Virus record (IMG/VR): IMGVR_UViG_3300028591_000070
Coordinates: 192,001-256,000 of that record
Length of the DNA: 64,000 nt
From: a virus
Taxonomy: Duplodnaviria; Caudoviricetes
Reading direction: 5' to 3' (one strand)
Of the stretch, positions 3,083 to 54,372 are shown one piece after another. Below the pieces are notes generated by a model, which saw only the letters and a program-made list of their open reading frames with translations, was not told where the DNA came from and did no database searches. The translations under genes and the position numbers were made by a program. Position 1 is the first letter of the stretch; each line of letters begins with the position of its first letter.

Positions 3083-3832
3083 ATGAAGATAGATATTGTA
3101 GTTTGTTTTTGTGATAAAGACTATACTTTAATTGATAGATTTTTAAGCTATATTAAAAGATTGACATTTGATTATCAGCTTACTTTAATTGATAATCGCG
3201 TTGATAAAAGTATTGATTTACATGAAAAATTAGCAAATTATAATTATCTTATACCCGAAAAAGATAGAGGTTTATTTGAATCTCGTCGTTATGGATTTGA
3301 GCACACCAATAATGATTTTATTTGGTTTGTTGATATCGACGACGAGATTTTTGATTTTGAATTAAATATCCAACCTACTGATGATATTGTTCTTTATAAT
3401 TTTAGGGTTCATGACTTAAATAAAGACATTATCGGCAATAATGAAAGATGTTATACTAATCGAATATATAAAATAGACCCAAACAATGATAGCCAAGTTG
3501 GATATGTCAATTATTATTTTATGCATGATGGTATATGGAATAAAATTTTTAATAGAAAAACCCTTAAAAAGTGCTATGACTCTATTCCATTTTTAGAAAA
3601 CTTTTTTATTTATGAAGACCTTTTCTTAGAAAAACACTTTTCTTATTTTGCATCAATTTTTAGAACTGATACTCAATATATTTATCAGTGGAATATGACA
3701 ACCACTTATGAGATTAAAGACCATATGGAGGATGGCGAAAGGTTTTATAACTTAATCGCCAACCCAAAATTAAAAAAAGAATATAGAAAATATCTAGATT
3801 TAATTTATATCCAACTAGACTCTGAAAATTAA
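3083..3832 (+). CDS. glycosyltransferase family 2
   Basis: IDIVV...LIDN...SRRYG...FIWFVDIDD (DxD)...IWNKIF...YEDLF, typical GT-A/GT2 pattern. Confidence 0.85.
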   Translation: MKIDIVVCFCDKDYTLIDRFLSYIKRLTFDYQLTLIDNRVDKSIDLHEKLANYNYLIPEKDRGLFESRRYGFEHTNNDFIWFVDIDDEIFDFELNIQPTDDIVLYNFRVHDLNKDIIGNNERCYTNRIYKIDPNNDSQVGYVNYYFMHDGIWNKIFNRKTLKKCYDSIPFLENFFIYEDLFLEKHFSYFASIFRTDTQYIYQWNMTTTYEIKDHMEDGERFYNLIANPKLKKEYRKYLDLIYIQLDSEN

Positions 3833-12391: not shown

Positions 12392-13174
12392 ATGATTTTA
12401 AATGTTATTGACTTTAATGATAATCTTAAAAAATCATATAGAAATAGATATTGCCTTTATCGAAATCTCGAATTAGGTCATGAAATTCATGTTTATAATG
12501 AGAATTCTAAATTAATGAAGGCTTGTCAAAGTACATTAACAGATGAGATGAAAAATATTTTAAAACGAACTCATTTTTCTCCAACATATGAATACTATAA
12601 ATTATTTTTAATGCAACACATAGAAGGATGGTTTACAGAAAGCGATACAATAGTCTATTCAACAAATTTAAATCCAAATAAAACTGTTCCAGGTACGATG
12701 CCAGTATATTATGACTCACAACATTGCTTACTTATACTTAATTTTTGTACTTGGATGCCAATTTATATTCATCTTGATGAAATTACAAAATTTTTTCTAA
12801 AAAAATCTTTTGATACTTTACACCTTTATATTAAAGAAGATATGTATCATAAGGGCTATATGATGAGTGAACTTTTTTGCCAAGAAATTATAGCTAAACC
12901 TTACTGCTCAAGCTATGATGAAGACCTTAAAGACCTTTGCGAAAAGTTTAATTTTATTAATATACCAGTAGACTTTGTTCATCATTCAGTTGGTAATCTT
13001 GAAACAATACCTCCTAATTATGTAAATCCTGATTCCCCAGAAAAAGTTCAAGATTATAAATCTGCAAAGCTTTGCTTAAAAAGAGACCAAGAAAATAATA
13101 TTCTTTTTATTGATAAGAGTCTTATTTATTATGATGATTTACTAAAATTTGATACTTTTAAAATTATGCCTTAA
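12392..13174 (+). CDS. putative glycosyltransferase (GT32/DXD-like)
   Basis: YEYYKLFLMQHIEGWFTESDT resembles the sDxxRlxxLxxxGGxyxDxD signature. Confidence 0.5.
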   Translation: MILNVIDFNDNLKKSYRNRYCLYRNLELGHEIHVYNENSKLMKACQSTLTDEMKNILKRTHFSPTYEYYKLFLMQHIEGWFTESDTIVYSTNLNPNKTVPGTMPVYYDSQHCLLILNFCTWMPIYIHLDEITKFFLKKSFDTLHLYIKEDMYHKGYMMSELFCQEIIAKPYCSSYDEDLKDLCEKFNFINIPVDFVHHSVGNLETIPPNYVNPDSPEKVQDYKSAKLCLKRDQENNILFIDKSLIYYDDLLKFDTFKIMP

Positions 13175-28304: not shown

Positions 28305-29120
28305 TTAGATTAGTCCCCATTCAGCAAACTTTTCAAAACCACCTTTCGATTTAATAAAATCTCTAGCAATTTCTACAATTTCGCTGTAAGGCTTTCCATC
28401 TACAGTATCATCTCCGATAGCTGTACAGATTTCTACATCTTTCTTAAGTTCCTGTGCTTTAAGGTAAGCATAGATATTTACAGAAACATCAGCTTTAGAG
28501 AGGTCTTTACCATGGAGTCCACCACCTGTAACTCCTCTTCCCATATCAGAGCCTAATTTACGATTGGTGGCGCCAGTATCAACATCAATACCACCTGTCC
28601 AAGGACCTAATGGATTTACAATCTGTGTTATTCCTGCTGGCAAATTATGAATAATTTCTTTTTCATCTGTGCAAGACTGGCAAATAATGAGCTTAGAGCT
28701 ATTATAGTCTAAAATATACTTACCATCTGTAGGATATTTTTCATAAATAACACGAGCAATTTCTGATAAATACCTTTCTTCATCAGAAGTATAAACTCCC
28801 TTAAAAATACCATTATCACCTGTTCTGAAACCGTTTTCCTGGTTTTTAGCAAGCTCTACATCTTGTGGATGGTAAACAATTTGAATTTCTTCAAAATCAT
28901 TACGACCTGAAATACGTTTTACAGCCTCAGTGATTCTGTACTGTAAGCTACTATCAGCAAAGTTTACTGATGATTCAATAATAATAAAACATTTACGATG
29001 ACCAATTAATACTTCTACCGCAACTTTAGGATTAGTATATTCATAGGCCATATCAACAATCGCTCCGGCGATTCTATCTGCAACCTTATCAGGATGCATT
29101 GGGTTAACCTTTTCAAACAT
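28305..29120 (-). CDS. metK: S-adenosylmethionine synthetase (compact form)
   Basis: HPDKVADRI, GDNG, DGK, GGIDVDTGATNRKL, GGGLHGKDLSKAD. Confidence 0.92.
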   Translation of the reverse strand: MFEKVNPMHPDKVADRIAGAIVDMAYEYTNPKVAVEVLIGHRKCFIIIESSVNFADSSLQYRITEAVKRISGRNDFEEIQIVYHPQDVELAKNQENGFRTGDNGIFKGVYTSDEERYLSEIARVIYEKYPTDGKYILDYNSSKLIICQSCTDEKEIIHNLPAGITQIVNPLGPWTGGIDVDTGATNRKLGSDMGRGVTGGGLHGKDLSKADVSVNIYAYLKAQELKKDVEICTAIGDDTVDGKPYSEIVEIARDFIKSKGGFEKFAEWGLI

Positions 29121-44569: not shown

Positions 44570-45625
44570 ATGATGAATTTGAAACAATATTTTTTAGACA
44601 CTTATTCTACTGAGTTTCGTAGAGATAAGCATGAGGACTTCTTTTGGGTTCAAATGCTTATGACAATTGCATGTTCTCTTTTAAATAGTCTTTGGTTATT
44701 AAAAGATGTATTTGTAAAAGGTATCGGTCCTGAAGGAAATTTATATTTTGTTATTTTATGTCGTCTTATTCCTTCTGTATTACTTATCCCATTTATTCTA
44801 TGGTCTTTCTCAAATAAAAAGATTGAGCCTTACTTTGCTAATTTTCTATTATACATTAATCTTTTTGCACAAATTTTTGCTATTCATTTTTCAGGTAAAC
44901 CTACTAGTGGAACTGGCCATACGATTATGAGCTTAGCTATTTTCATGCTAGAGTATGCCTCAGTATCTGGAGTGGCTCAGATTTTAGCTCAGATTTTATA
45001 TCCATTTTTAATGTATATAAGTTCTCAAGCTGTTTTAGGACTTTTTATAACGTCTAATGACCCAGCAGGATTACTATTTTCAAATTGTATTATGTCTATA
45101 GCTAGTTTAATTTCTGCCACAATTTTAAGAATAAATTATTATAATTCATGGATTATAAAACGCAAACTGGTGCTAGCTGCAAAAATGGATTCTATGACAG
45201 GTCTTTGGAATAGAAAAAGAATAAATGATATTACTAGCAAAGATTTATTATTAGAAGACTCAACTATTTTAATGATAGATATCGATAATTTTAAGTCTAT
45301 AAATGATAATAATGGCCATGACTTTGGTGATAAAGCTATTCTAGACACGGTCGACTATTTAAAAAAATCTTTTTCAACTGCAAATATTATTCGATATGGT
45401 GGTGATGAATTTTTAATTATTATTTCAGAAAATATGAAATTATCAAAAGTTAAAATTAGATTAAGTGCCAATCGTTCTAGAGATGACATTACCTATTCAA
45501 TAGGTATTGCTTATGGAAATAAAGATGATAATATCTATGGAATAATAAAACACGCTGATATAGCACTATATAAATCTAAAGAAACTAAAAATTGTATAAC
45601 ATTATTTAATGACATATTAAAATAA
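44570..45625 (+). CDS. membrane-bound diguanylate cyclase (GGDEF)
   Basis: About 5-6 TM helices, then DSMTGLWNR, MIDIDNFKSINDNNGHDFGD, RYGGDEF, SIG, ADIALYKSK. Confidence 0.92.
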   Translation: MMNLKQYFLDTYSTEFRRDKHEDFFWVQMLMTIACSLLNSLWLLKDVFVKGIGPEGNLYFVILCRLIPSVLLIPFILWSFSNKKIEPYFANFLLYINLFAQIFAIHFSGKPTSGTGHTIMSLAIFMLEYASVSGVAQILAQILYPFLMYISSQAVLGLFITSNDPAGLLFSNCIMSIASLISATILRINYYNSWIIKRKLVLAAKMDSMTGLWNRKRINDITSKDLLLEDSTILMIDIDNFKSINDNNGHDFGDKAILDTVDYLKKSFSTANIIRYGGDEFLIIISENMKLSKVKIRLSANRSRDDITYSIGIAYGNKDDNIYGIIKHADIALYKSKETKNCITLFNDILK

Positions 45626-46730: not shown

Positions 46731-47567
46731 TTAAAGATTTTCAACTAGTTTTTTAGCCTCATCATCATAGATATCTGGACTTATTTGGACATAATCAATA
46801 CCATGAATTTTAAAGAAAGTTTTTACTTCTTTTATCTCTGAGAAAGCAGGTTTCTTTAAAGTAAAGTTGACAAAAATACTTTGTGATCCAAAGGTATCTC
46901 TTAAATATAGAAGATTATCCATAACCTTTTCCCAACTAGCTCCAATTCTAATGGCCTCAAAACTTTCTTTAGTTATACCATCAATAGATGGGGAAAAATT
47001 ATAAATCACTCCTGTTGTGTCACTTATCGCTTTAAGTTCATCTATTCTAGAATGAGAAAGTAAAGTTAAATTAGATTGAAAGTCTACAATTCTTGTATCT
47101 TTTGGAGATAAACCTTTTAAAAATTGAATTACTTTATAATAATAAAAGAAGACTTCGCCAGAGCTTATTAAATGAATTTTTTCTAATGAATGTCCTTTAA
47201 TTTTTTCTAATGTTTCAAATTGAAGGTCTCTAGTGTCTGGCTCATCTTTATGTTCTGTAAAAAAACAATGATAACAATGTAAATTACAAGCTTTAGAAAA
47301 AGATACAGTAACTACTTCTATTTTAGGACTTAAAGTACATGGGCAAGTGCACCATCCTTCATAAGCAGGCTTTTTAGAAATATTTACTTTTGATGATTCT
47401 TCTTCTGCAAATGAAATAAGATCCTTTATCTTTAAAAAATCTTTAATTGGCATATCTACCACAAAAGGATAGATATAACAACACCTAGAAAGACAAACTG
47501 TTTTTCCTTTTGGCTCATAAGTAATTTCTAGTCTAGAAGGCATTACACATTTATTAAAAACTTCCAT
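46731..47567 (-). CDS. radical SAM protein 1 (N-terminal Twitch/SPASM-like Cys)
   Basis: CNLHCYHCFF, SSGEVF, SIDG...IR.GA.W; N-terminal C...RCC...CxCxC. Confidence 0.9.
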   Translation of the reverse strand: MEVFNKCVMPSRLEITYEPKGKTVCLSRCCYIYPFVVDMPIKDFLKIKDLISFAEEESSKVNISKKPAYEGWCTCPCTLSPKIEVVTVSFSKACNLHCYHCFFTEHKDEPDTRDLQFETLEKIKGHSLEKIHLISSGEVFFYYYKVIQFLKGLSPKDTRIVDFQSNLTLLSHSRIDELKAISDTTGVIYNFSPSIDGITKESFEAIRIGASWEKVMDNLLYLRDTFGSQSIFVNFTLKKPAFSEIKEVKTFFKIHGIDYVQISPDIYDDEAKKLVENL

Positions 47568-48403
47568 TACATTTCCTCAAACACTTTCTTTGCTTCTTCG
47601 TCAAAGCAGTCGTATGTCACAAAAGTATAGCCTATATTAAAATTTCTTGAAAAAAATTCTTTAACATTTTTATCTTTAAAATTTGGTTTTTTAATAACAT
47701 AGTTAATGCATATGTTCTCTGACCCAAATTCTTTAACCATTAACTCAAGGTTGTTCATAACTTTTTCAAAGTTTGCGCCTATTCTAGTTGCTTCAAACGT
47801 TTCTTTTGTAATTCCATCAATTGAAACAGTGATGTTTTTATATGGAATTCCTGTATTATCACTTACTTGTTTTAATTCTTTAATTCTAGTCTCATTTAAT
47901 GTAGAAAGACTTGATACAAAACTTACTTGTTTAGTATCTTTACATGGGTCTAAAGACTTTAAATAATTAAGTGTTTGATTATAATAAAAAAATGGTTCAC
48001 CTCTATCATTTAATCTTATTTCAGTAAGACAATTTCCTTTAATATTTTCTAAAGTTTTAAAATATAATTGTTTTGTTTCAGGGCTATCTTTATGCATTCC
48101 ATCCCAAAAGCAATGATAGCAACGTAAATTACAAGCCTTTGATAAGCCAACCGTTACTTTTTCAATTTTCTTAGGGAAATGACAAACTAAGCAACTGTCT
48201 TTGTGTTCATCATTAAAAACAGGTGGGACATTACAATGCTGATAAGCATATTCAATTATATTATTAATTTTTAAAAAATCCTCAATTGATAAAATTGAAA
48301 ATGGCTCAAGATAACAACATCTGCGTAAAAAAACTTTATCTTCTTGATTTAATATAATTGATAGTTCACCTAAAGGATTCCAACATTTTCTATTAATTTC
48401 CAT
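47567..48403 (-). CDS. radical SAM protein 2
   Basis: CNLRCYHCFW, DRGEPF, SIDG; N-terminal C...RCC...CxxC. Confidence 0.9.
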   Translation of the reverse strand: MEINRKCWNPLGELSIILNQEDKVFLRRCCYLEPFSILSIEDFLKINNIIEYAYQHCNVPPVFNDEHKDSCLVCHFPKKIEKVTVGLSKACNLRCYHCFWDGMHKDSPETKQLYFKTLENIKGNCLTEIRLNDRGEPFFYYNQTLNYLKSLDPCKDTKQVSFVSSLSTLNETRIKELKQVSDNTGIPYKNITVSIDGITKETFEATRIGANFEKVMNNLELMVKEFGSENICINYVIKKPNFKDKNVKEFFSRNFNIGYTFVTYDCFDEEAKKVFEEM

Positions 48404-48405
48404 AA

Positions 48406-49254
48406 TTATCCCCTATAGTTATAAAATGCTTTTTTGCAATTCTCATCTAACATATCATAGTAAATATTAACTTCTACACCTTTTGAATTAAAAAAGGGTT
48501 TTATATTTGGCAAATCTTTAATAGAAGCTTCTCGAATAGTACAACAAACGCAAATATCTTTTTTATCAAAAATGGAAATTAAGTTATCAAAGTTTTCCAT
48601 AACTTGTTCCCAATTTGCGCCACATCTTGTTCCTTCAAAACTCTCTTTAGTTATGCCGTCTATAGAAGCAACAAACATATATTTAACACCAGTTTGTTCA
48701 CTTATTTTCTTTAATTCTAAAATACGATTTTTATTTAATAAAGTCATATTAGTAAAAAACCGCATAGTTTCAGTATCATTAAGAGTAAGACTCCTTAAAA
48801 ATTTAACAACCTCATTATAATAAAAGAATGGCTCTCCTTGGTCTGTGAGTTGTAGTTGATAAAGCTGATGACCTTTAACACTGTATAATGTTTTAAAAAA
48901 TAAATCTTTAATCTGTTTAGTATCTGTGTGATGTCCATCAAAAAAACAATCATGACAATGAATATTACAAGCATGAGATAAAGATACCACTACTTGTTTA
49001 ATTTTATCGGGTGGAAAATAACAAGTAGTACATCTATCCATGGTCATTTGTTTTCGTAATTCTTCAGGAGAAGGATATTTAAACGTCTTTGTATAATCTA
49101 TTATATCATCTATTTTTGAAAATTCTTCAAAGCTCAGGGTTTTAAAAGGAGCTAAATGACAACATCTTTTTAGAGCAACTTCTGTATCATTTTCTCTTGT
49201 AATCCAAAGCGCACCATAAGGAATGGTACAATTTCCATGATTTGCGAATTCCAT
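48406..49254 (-). CDS. radical SAM protein 3
   Basis: CNIHCHDCFF, DQGEPF; start reassigned to MEFANHG after ACTAAT. Confidence 0.9.
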   Translation of the reverse strand: MEFANHGNCTIPYGALWITRENDTEVALKRCCHLAPFKTLSFEEFSKIDDIIDYTKTFKYPSPEELRKQMTMDRCTTCYFPPDKIKQVVVSLSHACNIHCHDCFFDGHHTDTKQIKDLFFKTLYSVKGHQLYQLQLTDQGEPFFYYNEVVKFLRSLTLNDTETMRFFTNMTLLNKNRILELKKISEQTGVKYMFVASIDGITKESFEGTRCGANWEQVMENFDNLISIFDKKDICVCCTIREASIKDLPNIKPFFNSKGVEVNIYYDMLDENCKKAFYNYRG

Positions 49255-49263
49255 AACAATAAA

Positions 49264-49276
49264 ATTAGTGACTAAT
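49264..49276. promoter_or_regulatory. divergent late-type promoter pair ATTAGT-g-ACTAAT
   Basis: Inverted repeat between ATG 49254(-) and ATG 49283(+). Confidence 0.7.
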
Positions 49277-49282
49277 TTCAAT

Positions 49283-50116
49283 ATGAATAAATGCCATAGA
49301 AAAATATATTCTATACAAGTAGATTTTACTATAAATAAAGTTGAACTAACAAAATGCTGCTATTTACATGGAAATAAAATTTCAATTGAAGAATTTAAGG
49401 CATTAGATAATATTATTATTCCACCAAATGAATTACCTTCTAATCCTTACCATATTGAAAATTGTTTAATGAATTGCGACTTTGATGATAATAAATATCA
49501 AACAATAGATATTTGTTGCAGTAGTTTATGTAATGCAAAATGTTATCATTGTTGTGCTGCAGATCATTCTCATCCCGACCCTAGAGAAAGAGATTTACTT
49601 TATAATTTTATTTTACCAAAAGTAAAAGGTTTTGGATATGGAACTCTTCAACTAGATGGGAAAGGAGAAGTATTTTTAAATTATAAAGAAATAACAGCAT
49701 TTTTAAAAACTCTTTCTGCTGAAAAAGATTTTAAGACTGTAAGATTTTTAACAAATGGTTCAACACTCACTAAAGAACGATTATTAGAATTAAAATCTAT
49801 TAGTGATATGACAGGTATAAACTATATTTTTGCAATTTCAGTAGATGGCATTAGTAAAAAAACCTTTGAAGCAGTGAGATGTGGACTTTCTTTTGAAAAT
49901 GTAATGGCTAATTTGCAGAACACTGTAGAGATTTTTGGAAATAATAATGTAGATATTACTTTTACGATTAAAGAACCTAACAAAGAAGACACTCCTTATG
50001 TGAAAGATTTTTTAGTAAATAATTATAATATTTTACCTGAAAGAATCGCTATGCAAAGTGATTTTTTAGATAAAAATATGAATCAATATTTAACAAATTA
50101 TTTTAAAGATCGTTAA
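49283..50116 (+). CDS. radical SAM protein 4
   Basis: CNAKCYHCCA, DGKGEVF, TNG, SVDG; start MNKCHRK. Confidence 0.9.
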   Translation: MNKCHRKIYSIQVDFTINKVELTKCCYLHGNKISIEEFKALDNIIIPPNELPSNPYHIENCLMNCDFDDNKYQTIDICCSSLCNAKCYHCCAADHSHPDPRERDLLYNFILPKVKGFGYGTLQLDGKGEVFLNYKEITAFLKTLSAEKDFKTVRFLTNGSTLTKERLLELKSISDMTGINYIFAISVDGISKKTFEAVRCGLSFENVMANLQNTVEIFGNNNVDITFTIKEPNKEDTPYVKDFLVNNYNILPERIAMQSDFLDKNMNQYLTNYFKDR

Positions 50117-50958
50117 AACTTTTCAATAAATAATTTTTTACAATCTTCATCAAAAAAGTCATAAGTAATAACTACCCATACACCTAAATTTCTGAAAAAC
50201 GTTTCAATCTCTTCTCTTGAGGCAGCCATATTAGGTTTTTTAATAGTGTAATTTACTAAAACATCATCAAAATTATTTAATAAATATTTTAGATTTGTGA
50301 TAGTCTTATCAAACTTTCCATAAATACGAGTAGCTTCATAAGCTTCTTTTGTGATACCATCTATAGAGGCCTCAAACTTATAGTGAATACCAGTTTTTTC
50401 ACTTATATCTTTAAGTTCTTTAATTCTTTCTTCCGATAATAAATTTAAATTTGTTAAAAACTTTATTGTTTTTGCATCTTCAGTAGTTAAAGTTTTTAAG
50501 TAATCTCTTATCTTATAATAATAAAAGAAGGGCTCACCTCTGTCAGTAAACTCAATAATATCTAAGTCATGACCTTTAATTTTTTCTAAAGTTTCAAAAT
50601 ATAATTCTTTTAATTCTTTTGTGTCTCTATGATTTTCATAGAAACAATGATAACAATTTAGATTACAAGCATAAGATAGCCCAACAGTTACTCTTTTTAT
50701 TTCATTTTTTGGAAAATAACAAGGATGGCAAAAATTATCTTCTTTAGAAGAAAAATTAGTATTTGCATATTTACTATAGTCTAAATATTCAAAAGTTTTA
50801 GAAAATTCAATAGGATCTTTTATTTTAAGAAATTCTTCAATAGAACAACTATAAAAAGGCTTACCACGACAGCAGCGTTTTAGGTCAATTTTATTTTCAA
50901 AAAAATTAATATTTAATTCACCACCTTCATAAGCAGTACAATTTACTAGTTTACTCAT
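50113..50958 (-). CDS. radical SAM protein 5
   Basis: CNLNCYHCFY, DRGEPF, SIDG. Confidence 0.9.
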   Translation of the reverse strand: MSKLVNCTAYEGGELNINFFENKIDLKRCCRGKPFYSCSIEEFLKIKDPIEFSKTFEYLDYSKYANTNFSSKEDNFCHPCYFPKNEIKRVTVGLSYACNLNCYHCFYENHRDTKELKELYFETLEKIKGHDLDIIEFTDRGEPFFYYYKIRDYLKTLTTEDAKTIKFLTNLNLLSEERIKELKDISEKTGIHYKFEASIDGITKEAYEATRIYGKFDKTITNLKYLLNNFDDVLVNYTIKKPNMAASREEIETFFRNLGVWVVITYDFFDEDCKKLFIEKF

Positions 50959-50961
50959 TAC

Positions 50962-51813
50962 TTAATCCCATCTTTTATTTAAAGGTACATATTTAGAACA
51001 ATACTCTTCATCAAAATAGTCAGAGCTCCATAAAACATTTGATCCTAGATTTTTAAAAAATTCTTCTACTTGAGGCACATCTTCTATGTTAGGCCGTTTA
51101 ACTGTAAATGTGACCAAAGTATTTCCAAAAAGATTATTTAATTTTTTTAAAACTAAAATTACTTTGTTAAAATCAGCACCTGGTCGACATTTCGAAAAAG
51201 TATCTTCTTTAATTCCATCTATTGAAAGATTAAACTGATAATTTACACCAGTTTTTTTAGATATTTCATATAATTGATTTATTCTATCTTCGTTTAAAAG
51301 AGTACCATTAGTCATAAAAAATATATTTTTAATATTATTACTTGTAATGCTATTTAAATATGTTATTAAATCATTATAATAAATGAAAATCTCGCCGGAG
51401 CCATCTAAGAATAAAGTACCAATATTTGAGTTTTTTAATAAGTTTAACATTTTAAATAAAAATTCTTTTGCTTTTAATGGATTATTTTGCTCTTTATTTA
51501 AAGGACTCCATCCATCAATAATTCCACCAAAACCTGCACAACAGTGATAACATCTTAAATTACAAGCCTTAATGACATTAAGGGTAACATTTTTTATCTG
51601 ATTTGAAAATGCACAATTCTTTTGGCATTGATTTTCATGACCTTCTTTAAACTCGGAAGAAATTGCAAGTTCACCTAAGTCATTTAAACTTTTATTTAAA
51701 AATTCTTCTAAAGAAATAGTTTTTTGTATAAGTTGACAACATCTACCTATATCTATAGTTTGATTTATATTATCATATGAAACTAATAAATCTGAAGTTT
51801 TACAACAAAACAT
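50962..51813 (-). CDS. radical SAM protein 6
   Basis: CNLRCYHCCA, DGSGEIF, TNG, SIDG. Confidence 0.9.
   Translation of the reverse strand: MFCCKTSDLLVSYDNINQTIDIGRCCQLIQKTISLEEFLNKSLNDLGELAISSEFKEGHENQCQKNCAFSNQIKNVTLNVIKACNLRCYHCCAGFGGIIDGWSPLNKEQNNPLKAKEFLFKMLNLLKNSNIGTLFLDGSGEIFIYYNDLITYLNSITSNNIKNIFFMTNGTLLNEDRINQLYEISKKTGVNYQFNLSIDGIKEDTFSKCRPGADFNKVILVLKKLNNLFGNTLVTFTVKRPNIEDVPQVEEFFKNLGSNVLWSSDYFDEEYCSKYVPLNKRWD
50983..51018. repeat. 36-bp exact direct repeat shared with 52692..52727
   Basis: AGGTACATATTTAGAACAATACTCTTCATCAAAATA at the 3' ends of rSAM genes 6 and 8. Confidence 0.85.
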
Positions 51814-51823
51814 ATATAGTAAA

Positions 51824-51835
51824 TTTAGTACTAAT
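51824..51835. promoter_or_regulatory. divergent late-type promoter pair TTTAGT-ACTAAT
   Basis: Between ATG 51813(-) and ATG 51842(+). Confidence 0.7.
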
Positions 51836-51841
51836 TTTAAT

Positions 51842-52669
51842 ATGCAAAAATGTCGAAGAACTAATGAATTATATATAACTTTAAATGACCAAAATAATAT
51901 ATATTTACAAAGATGTTGTGCGGCTTCAGGAGAAGTTATTAGTTTAGATGATTTTTTTAATTATTCTATAGATGAACTCAGCGAAATTCCAATAAATGGA
52001 CATACCCTAAATGAAAGAAAAAGTGGTTGTAGTAATAAATGCAATTTTTCAAAAAACATTAAAACAATATTTTTTAATGTGATTAATGTTTGTAATATTA
52101 AATGTTATCATTGCTGCGCCGGATGTGACCATAAAGGTTTAGGTAATATATCATTTAGAAAAAAGCAATTTTTTAAAATAATAAATACTATAAAAAATGC
52201 GCATCTTGATTCTATTGGATTCGATGGCACTGGAGAAATATTTCTCTTTTATAAAGACTTAGTGTCTTTATTAAAAACACTAACTCCAAATGATACTAAA
52301 GATATACGATTTTTAACAAATGGTACTCTTTTAAATGAAGACCGACTAAAAGAACTCTATCAAATAAGTAAAGACACAGGAATAAATTATAGGTTTGGTT
52401 TATCGGTAGATGGTTTAACAAAAGAAACTTATGAGAAAATAAGAGTGGGTGCAAATTTTGAACATACAATAGATATTATTGATTCTATAAAGAATATTTT
52501 TAATAATCCACCTGAAATTATTTTTACTATTAAAAAATATAATATCCAAGAAGTACCTTTTGCAAAAGATTTTTTTATACAACTAGGTTGCTCTTATATT
52601 GAATTTTTATATGACATATTTGATTCAGAATGTGGTAAATATATGCCAGAAGATTGTAGAATTGGTTAA
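51842..52669 (+). CDS. radical SAM protein 7
   Basis: CNIKCYHCCA, DGTGEIF, TNG, SVDG. Confidence 0.9.
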   Translation: MQKCRRTNELYITLNDQNNIYLQRCCAASGEVISLDDFFNYSIDELSEIPINGHTLNERKSGCSNKCNFSKNIKTIFFNVINVCNIKCYHCCAGCDHKGLGNISFRKKQFFKIINTIKNAHLDSIGFDGTGEIFLFYKDLVSLLKTLTPNDTKDIRFLTNGTLLNEDRLKELYQISKDTGINYRFGLSVDGLTKETYEKIRVGANFEHTIDIIDSIKNIFNNPPEIIFTIKKYNIQEVPFAKDFFIQLGCSYIEFLYDIFDSECGKYMPEDCRIG

Positions 52670-52670
52670 T

Positions 52671-53516
52671 TTATGAATATCTTTTATCTACAGGTACATA
52701 TTTAGAACAATACTCTTCATCAAAATAATCTGAATTCCATGTGATACTAACATCATAAGGTTCAAAAAACTTTTCAACAAAAGGTACATCTTCTACATTA
52801 GGTCGTTTAACTGTAAATATTACAGTAGTATATGGGAATAATTTTGATATAAACTTTAAGTTATCTAATACCCTATTAAAATCAGCACCTGGTCTACAAG
52901 CATTAAAAGTTTTTTCGCTTATACCATCTACCGATATTACGAATCTATACTGAACATTTGTCGTTTTACTTATTTTTAATAAATTAACAATTTTATTTTT
53001 ATTTAAAAGAGTAGCATTTGTTTGAAAATAAATTATTTTTGTATTTTCACCTGAAAAAGATTTTAAAGCTTCAATGAGGTCATCATAATAAATAAATATT
53101 TCGCCAGAGCCATCCATACTAATAGAAGAAAGTTTTTTTGTTCTTAAGTAAGAAAGTGCATCAAAAAGAAAATTTTTTCTATCTTGTAATTCTTCTTTAC
53201 AAATATTTTTAGCATTCCATTCACTAATTGAACCACTCTGTCCTGCACAGCAATGAAGACAAGATAAATTACATTTAGCAATAGCTGATATAACTACGTC
53301 TGTTATAGGCTCTACAAAGCCACAATTAAATTGACACTGATGCATATGATCTGGCCTAAGCTCAATAGGAGTATTTGAAGCTAAATCTTCTAAACTATTT
53401 AAAAATAAATCTGCTCTAGAAAATTGGTGTTCTTTTAAATGACAACATCTACTTATTAAAATAAATCCAGGTTTGTCATATGATATATTTATAATCGAGG
53501 ACCTTGAACATGACAT
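52671..53516 (-). CDS. radical SAM protein 8
   Basis: CNLSCLHCCA, DGSGEIF, SVDG. Confidence 0.9.
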   Translation of the reverse strand: MSCSRSSIINISYDKPGFILISRCCHLKEHQFSRADLFLNSLEDLASNTPIELRPDHMHQCQFNCGFVEPITDVVISAIAKCNLSCLHCCAGQSGSISEWNAKNICKEELQDRKNFLFDALSYLRTKKLSSISMDGSGEIFIYYDDLIEALKSFSGENTKIIYFQTNATLLNKNKIVNLLKISKTTNVQYRFVISVDGISEKTFNACRPGADFNRVLDNLKFISKLFPYTTVIFTVKRPNVEDVPFVEKFFEPYDVSITWNSDYFDEEYCSKYVPVDKRYS

Positions 53517-53531
53517 ACTAATTTAATTAGT
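53517..53531. promoter_or_regulatory. overlapping late-type promoter pair ACTAAT-tta-ATTAGT
   Basis: Fills almost all of the 16-bp gap between ATG 53516(-) and ATG 53533(+). Confidence 0.7.
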
Positions 53532-53532
53532 T

Positions 53533-54372
53533 ATGTGTCATCCATGGGAAAATTCTTTAGTAATTAATCAATTCGAAGGCTTAGATGGCTTTGAGGTTAG
53601 TAGATGCTGTATATTGAAAAGTAAAAAAATATCAAAAGAACAATTTTTTGAGTCATCCTTAAATGATGTTGGCAGGTTTGCTAAACCTGAGTCTTTTATC
53701 CAAGATGACTTATCACTATGTGCTCATGATTGTAATTTTTTAGAAGATATAAGTAAAGTTCATTTAAATATTATTCATAATTGTAATTTAAGATGTTATC
53801 ATTGTTGTGCAGGCTTTGATAAAAATGACCCAAGATTATGTTTTGGACTTAATAAATCTTTAGAATATCATCAACAGAAAAAAGAGTCATTTTTTCAAGT
53901 TTTAAATTATTTAAAAAACTATCCATTAAAAATAATATCAATGGATGGATCTGGAGAAATTTTTTTATATTATAAAGACCTAATTCATTACTTATTGTCA
54001 GTAAGATCTCACAATGTAGAAGAAATTTGTTTTTTAACAAATGGTACATTATTAACTGAAGAAAAAATTATTACTTTAAGTAAAATAAGTGAAAAAACAA
54101 AAATCAAATATAGTTTCGACCTCTCAATAGATGGTGTAACTAAAGAAAGTTTTGAATCAATTAGACATGGTGCAAAGTTTGAACAAATAATAGAAACAGC
54201 ATATCTTTTAAAAAATTATTTTGATACACAGATTAATTTTACTATTAAAAAACCAAATATCAGTGATATTGATAAGGTAGCAGATTTTTTTAAAGATTTT
54301 AGACTTTTCTGGTCATATGATTATTATGATCCTGAATGTGCGAAATATTTAAAAAATAAATGGGGAGAATAA
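53533..54372 (+). CDS. radical SAM protein 9
   Basis: CNLRCYHCCA, DGSGEIF, TNG, SIDG. Confidence 0.9.
   Translation: MCHPWENSLVINQFEGLDGFEVSRCCILKSKKISKEQFFESSLNDVGRFAKPESFIQDDLSLCAHDCNFLEDISKVHLNIIHNCNLRCYHCCAGFDKNDPRLCFGLNKSLEYHQQKKESFFQVLNYLKNYPLKIISMDGSGEIFLYYKDLIHYLLSVRSHNVEEICFLTNGTLLTEEKIITLSKISEKTKIKYSFDLSIDGVTKESFESIRHGAKFEQIIETAYLLKNYFDTQINFTIKKPNISDIDKVADFFKDFRLFWSYDYYDPECAKYLKNKWGE

Follow-up and report, generated by a model that had tools for sequence, protein, structure and literature searches.

In the Campylobacter phages CP220 and CPt10, which carry 11–12 radical S-adenosylmethionine (SAM) genes each, these genes include an interchangeable five-gene module and are of unknown function (PMC2853527). 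In mycobacteriophages, phage glycosyltransferases decorate capsid and tail proteins (Freeman et al. 2023, as summarized in PMC12619734), and the host recognition cluster of pelagimyophages is a hypervariable glycosyltransferase island in which extra radical-SAM cassettes distinguish two closely related phages (PMC7029224). Here, we analysed a 64,000-nucleotide stretch (hereafter, the window) of the Caudoviricetes record IMGVR_UViG_3300028591_000070, in which nine adjacent radical-SAM open reading frames (ORFs) fill positions 46731–54372. Our analysis indicates that all nine predicted genes are genuine, without disruption and maintained by purifying selection and that, to judge from related phages, they form a pool of accessory cassettes, gained and lost among close relatives. 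We propose, with about even confidence, that this pool edits the sugars of a glycan that the phage itself makes and that is most likely borne by the virion; that the substrate is a sugar, whatever its location, we consider fairly probable.

Like CP220 and CPt10, the phage examined here has many exchangeable radical-SAM genes, but a tblastn search of 50,697 phage records revealed no sequence match between the two sets and, in our case, members of a single paralogous family are exchanged one gene at a time at no fewer than 3 sites. With the mycobacteriophages it shares phage glycosyltransferases and, as the likely end product, a putatively glycosylated virion; unlike in our proposal, the summary of that work names no radical-SAM step (PMC12619734). 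The pelagimyophage cluster, compared by description only, likewise combines glycosyltransferases with the gain of radical-SAM cassettes but is a single island beside the tail fibres and is read as modifying the host O-chain. Exchange of radical-SAM modules and virion glycosylation are already known in phages, and the present system would be a variant of both kinds; what is distinctive is one family with 15 copies per genome, 44 types in the clade sample and gene-by-gene turnover at promoter sites.

The window corresponds to positions 192001–256000 of the source record, which consists of 385,934 bases with 31.7% G+C and is estimated to be a complete phage genome; near-identical DNA is present in sheep and cattle gut metagenomes. 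Below, G000 denotes this genome, whereas L-numbers denote loci of G000 and its relatives. A gut Treponema probably serves as host, because a flagellin-like phage gene (L106:3942-4637, genome 330942–331637, 231 aa) matches Treponema flagellins at 72–77% identity; its product is either a flagellin fragment or a short flagellin.

The nine ORFs encode proteins of 275–283 aa, in agreement with the original prediction of nine consecutive genes of ~280 aa, and lie between a 350-aa gene without known identity and two type II topoisomerase genes. They had been described as a head-to-tail tandem array; instead, the strand order (−,−,−,+,−,−,+,−,+) makes three divergent pairs, with 16–28 bases between partners, plus three trailing genes. 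In the first pair, paralogue 3 (48406–49254, minus strand) and paralogue 4 (49283–50116, plus strand) encode 282 and 277 aa, respectively, from their likely starts, the ATG codons at 49254 and 49283. The leftward unit continues with paralogue 2 (47567–48403, minus strand, 278 aa), which at its stop codon overlaps with the beginning of paralogue 1 (46731–47567, minus strand, 278 aa), the last gene of the unit. The second pair comprises paralogue 6 (50962–51813, minus strand, 283 aa), with paralogue 5 (50113–50958, minus strand, 281 aa) downstream of it, and paralogue 7 (51842–52669, plus strand, 275 aa); the third, paralogue 8 (52671–53516, minus strand, 281 aa) and paralogue 9 (53533–54372, plus strand, 279 aa). 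The array genes have 25–29% G+C versus 32–36% for the flanking genes. Long contigs from an independent bovine sample cover most of the array at ~96% identity or better, with two short gaps, and the ratios of nonsynonymous to synonymous substitution rates (dN/dS) against orthologues in relatives are 0.06–0.43 (~0.10 for paralogue 1), indicative of purifying selection on each copy. Thus, both an assembly artefact and a decaying pseudogene array are ruled out. Near the array, at 44570–45625, lies a membrane GGDEF-domain gene that is kept in relatives.

Pairwise identity among the nine proteins is 28–48%, and all nine contain CxxxCxxC, GE(P/I/V)F, SxDG...R and the N-terminal set C...(R/K)CC...C-x2/3-C, as previously noted for each gene and now borne out by alignment; the invariant residues are C7, C29, C30, C73, C77, C94, C98, C101, G137, E138, F140, S194, D196, G197 and R207. 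The longer motif SxDG...R.G, originally assigned to every copy, applies as far as the arginine, one copy having R-x-x-G rather than R-x-G. In the hidden Markov model searches suggested along with the original prediction, Pfam Radical_SAM matches 8 of the 9 proteins, 7 of them above the cut-off, and the remaining one, paralogue 3, is a full family member at 373 bits on the family profile, on which all nine score above 340 bits. Together with the CxxxCxxC motif, the predicted partial (beta/alpha)6 barrel and its GGE-like and ribose motifs identify these proteins as members of the radical-SAM superfamily with an intact predicted SAM-cleaving core.

None of the nine proteins reaches the cut-off of any NCBIfam model: they score 27–45 bits, over the core only, on NF033640 (N_Twi_rSAM, cut-off 170) and at most 38 bits on NF038283 (viperin/prokaryotic viperin, cut-off 180), and fall far below the cut-offs of the models CcpM, SkfB, SCIFF, YydG and PapB for maturases of ribosomally synthesized and post-translationally modified peptides (RiPPs). 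Nor does the family map to a housekeeping enzyme, an outcome that had been named, in combination with the lack of any virion or DNA modification, among those refuting the original prediction, given that the MoaA, NirJ and Ahb equivalog cut-offs are reached by none of the nine. In line with the original remark that no adjacent RiPP precursor is visible, the array leaves no room for one between its genes. A tblastn search of the 50,697 phage records of INPHARED gave no match to the family, the closest Atlas clusters are viral, and literature searches on N-terminal Twitch domains, radical SAM with capsid glycosylation and Treponema jumbo phages yielded no description of the family.

The predicted structure of paralogue 6 (predicted local distance difference test, pLDDT, 90) comprises a partial radical-SAM barrel and a small N-terminal cysteine domain. 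In a structure search with this model, radical-SAM structures occupy the top 49 places among the matches listed, led by SkfB (Z 13.3; root-mean-square deviation, rmsd, 3.8; 202 residues aligned), MoaA (13.2), NifB (12.7), viperin (12.5) and BlsE (12.3; rmsd 3.1; 186 aligned), all tied within ~1 Z. BtrN and BlsE (Protein Data Bank entries 4m7t and 7vob), both among the matches, are sugar-acting radical-SAM enzymes with a Twitch domain. Like the array proteins, they combine a compact core with a small domain of four to five cysteines, but their Twitch domain is C-terminal, they belong to antibiotic pathways, the sequence match to BtrN is weak (E 0.004), and other enzymes match the family equally well.

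The N-terminal cysteines had been likened to the auxiliary Fe–S domain of the Twitch/SPASM type, which is usually C-terminal. In Twitch domains, the order is Cys, beta-hairpin, Cys(Cys), helix, CxxC; the N-terminal domain of the array proteins runs from a cysteine through a beta-hairpin, a Cys-Cys pair and short helices to C-x2/3-C. When aligned with hhalign to the C-terminal Twitch domains of homologues, the cysteines are in register, with a score of 16–17 versus at most 13 for 40 shuffles and a probability of only 4–7%, and the whole-length model has a TM-score of 0.75 to Atlas clusters in which about half of the members contain SPASM. By contrast, Pfam SPASM (PF13186) matches neither the N-terminal domains nor any other part of the genome's proteins and is not among the 25 families listed for 90 N-terminal segments of relatives; the N-terminal 70 residues folded alone (pLDDT 91) gave a best Z of 2.7 and no Foldseek match, the domain being too small to be informative. 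NF033640 also describes a Cys-rich domain ahead of a SPASM/Twitch-type core, shows weak Pfam scores and is among the matches for all nine proteins, but its model has 398 positions versus the ~280 aa of the array proteins, which remain far below its cut-off. A Twitch-type Fe–S domain is a plausible interpretation of the predicted N-terminal fold, for which this evidence is suggestive only.

The family extends beyond the array: G000 encodes 15 members, including 5 directly after the major capsid gene and 1 beside the probable terminase gene. Synteny in related phages, which the original prediction had marked for examination, reveals an array site that varies gene by gene under conserved flanks. 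Where the flanking genes of a relative are more than 90% identical, the copy number of the site is one, eight or nine: nine in L005, which has lost one member and gained another; eight in L011 (paralogue 7 is missing from both); at least 8, with replacements, in L013; and one in L027, whose flanks are 94% identical in DNA. In one metagenome contig, the last three array genes are replaced by ~900 other bases. The site behind the capsid gene is occupied by eleven members in L007 and by six genes in L016. In L003, the backbone proteins are mostly 95–100% identical to those of G000, yet the terminase-side copy is gone and a divergent motif pair, empty in G000, has received two copies. The second inserted paralogue (L003:10814-11743) is flanked by a 30-base direct repeat, which contains the motif and the first codons of the downstream neighbour and may be a trace of how the insertion came about.

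The 89 domains sampled from the clade fall into 44 types at 62% identity, and the SAM motifs are near-invariant over all 44; a quick family tree with long branches served solely to view type groupings. Alternate positions of the barrel strands, which differ between types, show a within-type conservation of 0.82 versus 0.64 for columns of equal variability (based on 18 independent pairs; permutation p ~1e-4, an optimistic value because the positions were picked from strand alternation after the table had been seen). If, as strand alternation suggests, these positions face the barrel lumen and line a putative active site, the pattern is supportive, albeit not decisive, of diversified specificity. 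Relatives also encode double fusions, with two family domains per polypeptide (L016:4405-6108, L021:3610-5427 and L007:4309-5943), and their radical-SAM arrays include a 190-aa domain (L007:9395-9970, L021:370-999) that is doubled in G000 (L001:16089-17267); a DUF1796 search with this repeated domain at genome 16089 gave no match, with the controls likewise silent, and an Atlas match to DUF1919 at 0.80 is a lead only. The capsid-side array of one relative harbours a GH5 glycoside hydrolase gene (L021:7136-8161).

The turnover takes place at sites marked by a short motif. In G000, 41 ORF-starting ATG codons are preceded by ACTAAT at a distance of exactly 6 nt, versus 5 or fewer for any other spacing, and control hexamers show no spacing peak; a Shine–Dalgarno-like word precedes 2 of the 41 motif genes versus 183 of 274 other genes. 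ACTAATT is thus probably a −10-type element giving leaderless messages, which would allow divergent genes to fit within less than 30 bases. The ACTAATT-N5-ATG arrangement with almost no Shine–Dalgarno words, many of the sites being back-to-back, suggests that the late programme as a whole is largely leaderless. In the array, back-to-back ACTAAT sites, putative leaderless late promoters, separate paralogues 3 and 4 (49264–49276), back-to-back ACTAAA/ACTAAT sites separate paralogues 6 and 7 (51824–51835), and overlapping and back-to-back ACTAAT sites separate paralogues 8 and 9 (53517–53531). All nine genes had been placed downstream of ACTAAW; six have their own ACTAA(T/A) site, 2 at the exact spacing and 4 at 9–10 bases, and the genes at 46731, 47567 and 50113 follow such a site only through presumed operons. 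In relatives, inverted copies usually have the motif, and some copies trail topoisomerase genes without it.

Late expression of the motif-bearing genes is likely, because the motif precedes genes for the baseplate wedge, a tape-measure-like protein (weak match) and an amidase, as well as homing endonucleases, GT2 glycosyltransferases and the three largest proteins, whereas NrdD, RecA, DnaB, ligase, Thy1 and PolA genes lack it. The association of the motif with tail, baseplate and head genes, as first stated, is upheld by the baseplate wedge and the weak tape-measure-like gene; the T4 portal and sheath profiles gave no match, so that the designation "head and tail genes" is based on matches to capsid, baseplate and, weakly, tape-measure proteins. 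One sheep metatranscriptome contains two short, low-depth contigs inside the array, for which DNA carry-over is possible and which give no timing.

What points to sugars is the repeated association of the family with glycosyltransferases. The G000 gene 23946, behind the capsid gene, encodes a family domain with a GT2-like tail (weak match, E 1e-4, below the cut-off). Among 1.8 billion representatives, 172 proteins match the family at E < 1e-30, and 7 of the 10 long relatives picked for scanning are fusions of a GT2-type domain with a family radical-SAM domain; in 5 of these 7, the GT2 domain matches (E 1e-5 to 1e-12) the GT2 genes of G000 at window 3083 and genome 34768, both of which bear the motif. 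The former (3083–3832, plus strand, with an upstream ACTAAW site), a presumed partner 43 kb from the array, is the one of two originally proposed late glycosyltransferases that Pfam confirms; the other, at 12392–13174, matches nothing. In two temperate siphophage loci, a same-strand series of tape-measure, NlpC/P60 and large tail genes leads directly to the fusion gene; in a third locus, the fusion comes after large virion-type genes and before another GT2 gene. Other, distant phage contigs contain 2–4 family members among GT2, GT92, DegT aminotransferase, Gfo/Idh/MocA and ATP-grasp genes, and beyond the five capsid-side paralogues of G000 lie GT2 and UDP-galactopyranose mutase genes. Phage glycosyltransferases are thus linked to virion genes, through motif-bearing GT2 genes and fusions behind capsid and tail genes. 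The MetK gene, previously noted together with the array, is unlinked to it: MetK-like, at window 28305–29120, it encodes a short, 271-aa form, ~110 residues shorter than solved MetK enzymes, and lies 18 kb from the array without the motif, so that a dedicated SAM supply is unsupported by position or promoter.

These observations support the diversified, late-acting system of the original prediction, whose candidate targets, namely virion proteins, glycans or DNA, are narrowed toward glycans because of the GT2 fusions, the positions behind capsid and tail genes, and the sugar-enzyme neighbourhoods. Under the proposed mechanism, the N-terminal cysteines would bind an auxiliary [4Fe-4S] cluster, the Twitch domain having been relocated to the N terminus. 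The 5'-deoxyadenosyl radical would abstract hydrogen at one of the carbons of the sugar; with an electron passing to the auxiliary cluster, the outcome would be a BtrN-like oxidation or a related epimerization or dehydration. Each paralogue may have its own sugar or position, in which case the paralogue set of a phage would fix its glycan type. The glycan itself would be built by the phage GT2-type glycosyltransferases, with expression mostly late, from leaderless ACTAATT promoters; located on virion proteins, it would vary such that surface recognition is altered.

The same sugar chemistry could instead be directed at host-surface or flagellum glycans, or at DNA-base sugars, and serve to exclude other phages or to evade nucleases, an alternative we regard as unlikely while acknowledging that the GT2 fusions leave the acceptor unnamed. 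The phage does carry a Treponema-like flagellin, 72–77% identical, the pelagimyophage islands that combine glycosyltransferases with variable radical-SAM cassettes are read as O-chain modifiers (PMC7029224), and phage glycosyltransferases are known to glycosylate DNA (cited in PMC12619734). However, the fusions of temperate phages are in line with tail genes, not next to the integrase, and modification of DNA could already be served by a separate cluster of sugar and nucleotide enzymes at genome 185–190 kb that has neither radical-SAM genes nor the motif. In this likely DNA base-sugar modification cluster (L101:10976-16097), a T4 beta-glucosyltransferase-like gene is grouped with sugar-isomerase-like and FAD-oxidoreductase genes.

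A different substrate is invoked if the paralogues act in protein or peptide maturation by cross-linking or epimerizing virion proteins, for instance the two repeat proteins with 65–68 cysteines, one site per copy. Five paralogues are indeed located 4–10 kb upstream of the Cys-repeat genes (genome 30.2–33.6 kb), and SkfB and EpeE/YydG are among the top matches; but two radical-SAM-like genes, 26520 and 28989, separate the Cys-repeat genes from the family copies, the DNA examined around the fusions in other phages contains no Cys-rich ORF, and every maturase model is far below its cut-off, so we give this option little credence. The enzymes might also release small molecules able to diffuse, for example modified nucleotides of the viperin kind, that act against competing phages or host defence, with an arms race driving the variation. 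Such products would accommodate the viperin-like size and fold (Z 12.5) and the accessory, fast-turnover behaviour of the genes. They would leave the GT2 fusion and the tail-module position unexplained, and with the viperin model at 38 bits or less against a cut-off of 180, this possibility appears slim. It seems similarly improbable that the genes are auxiliary metabolic genes for an anaerobic host, as in the host support proposed for the radical-SAM genes of CP220 and CPt10 (PMC2853527), or largely redundant copies spread by recombination. Copy number does go down to one at the array site, but no housekeeping family fits, the nearest Atlas clusters are viral, and type-specific conservation speaks against redundancy.

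Several observations weigh against editing of virion sugars as well. The closest structures are spread across peptide, nucleotide and sugar enzymes, and the Twitch assignment is weak, given the low hhalign probability; the p-value for the strand positions is optimistic, as stated above. There is no glycosyltransferase inside or beside the nine-gene array, and fifteen tailoring enzymes stand in an odd ratio to the few recognizable glycosyltransferases. The relative L027 retains a single copy at the array site. Finally, some copies, which come after topoisomerase genes or after a GTTAATAT site, lack the motif, so that not all members need be late.

G000 encodes further radical-SAM-like proteins in other settings. 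The two proteins encoded by the Cys-repeat genes (L002:13227-16565, genome 30226–33564) contain 65 and 68 cysteines, arranged in CxxC/CxxxC repeats, and one of them has a weak histidine-phosphatase N terminus; the genes directly follow the radical-SAM-like genes 26520 and 28989, with which they may constitute a separate module for protein maturation. Downstream of a further radical-SAM gene (genome 74481) lies an array of small paralogous proteins that begin with the motif FETNSSS (L095:1538-5394 and L108:16349-16966).

Why some phages carry many radical-SAM genes has been an open question since CP220 and CPt10 (PMC2853527), and the family described here offers a testable answer, aided by its assets: the enzymes are small and lack obvious membrane anchors, candidate GT2 partners are encoded by the same phage, fusions occur naturally, and there are dozens of natural variants whose putative active-site linings differ. 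If virion glycans are edited, an extra tailoring layer would be added to phage particle glycosylation, along with new enzymes for editing sugar C–H bonds, and the N-terminal-Twitch architecture would gain its first function. More tentatively, and with some doubt on our part, this probable Treponema jumbo-phage lineage may keep more than 40 radical-SAM sugar editors on promoter-bearing single-gene cassettes that are shuffled to give a strain-specific virion glycan coat. If so, these phages would achieve combinatorial surface variation via oxygen-independent radical chemistry.

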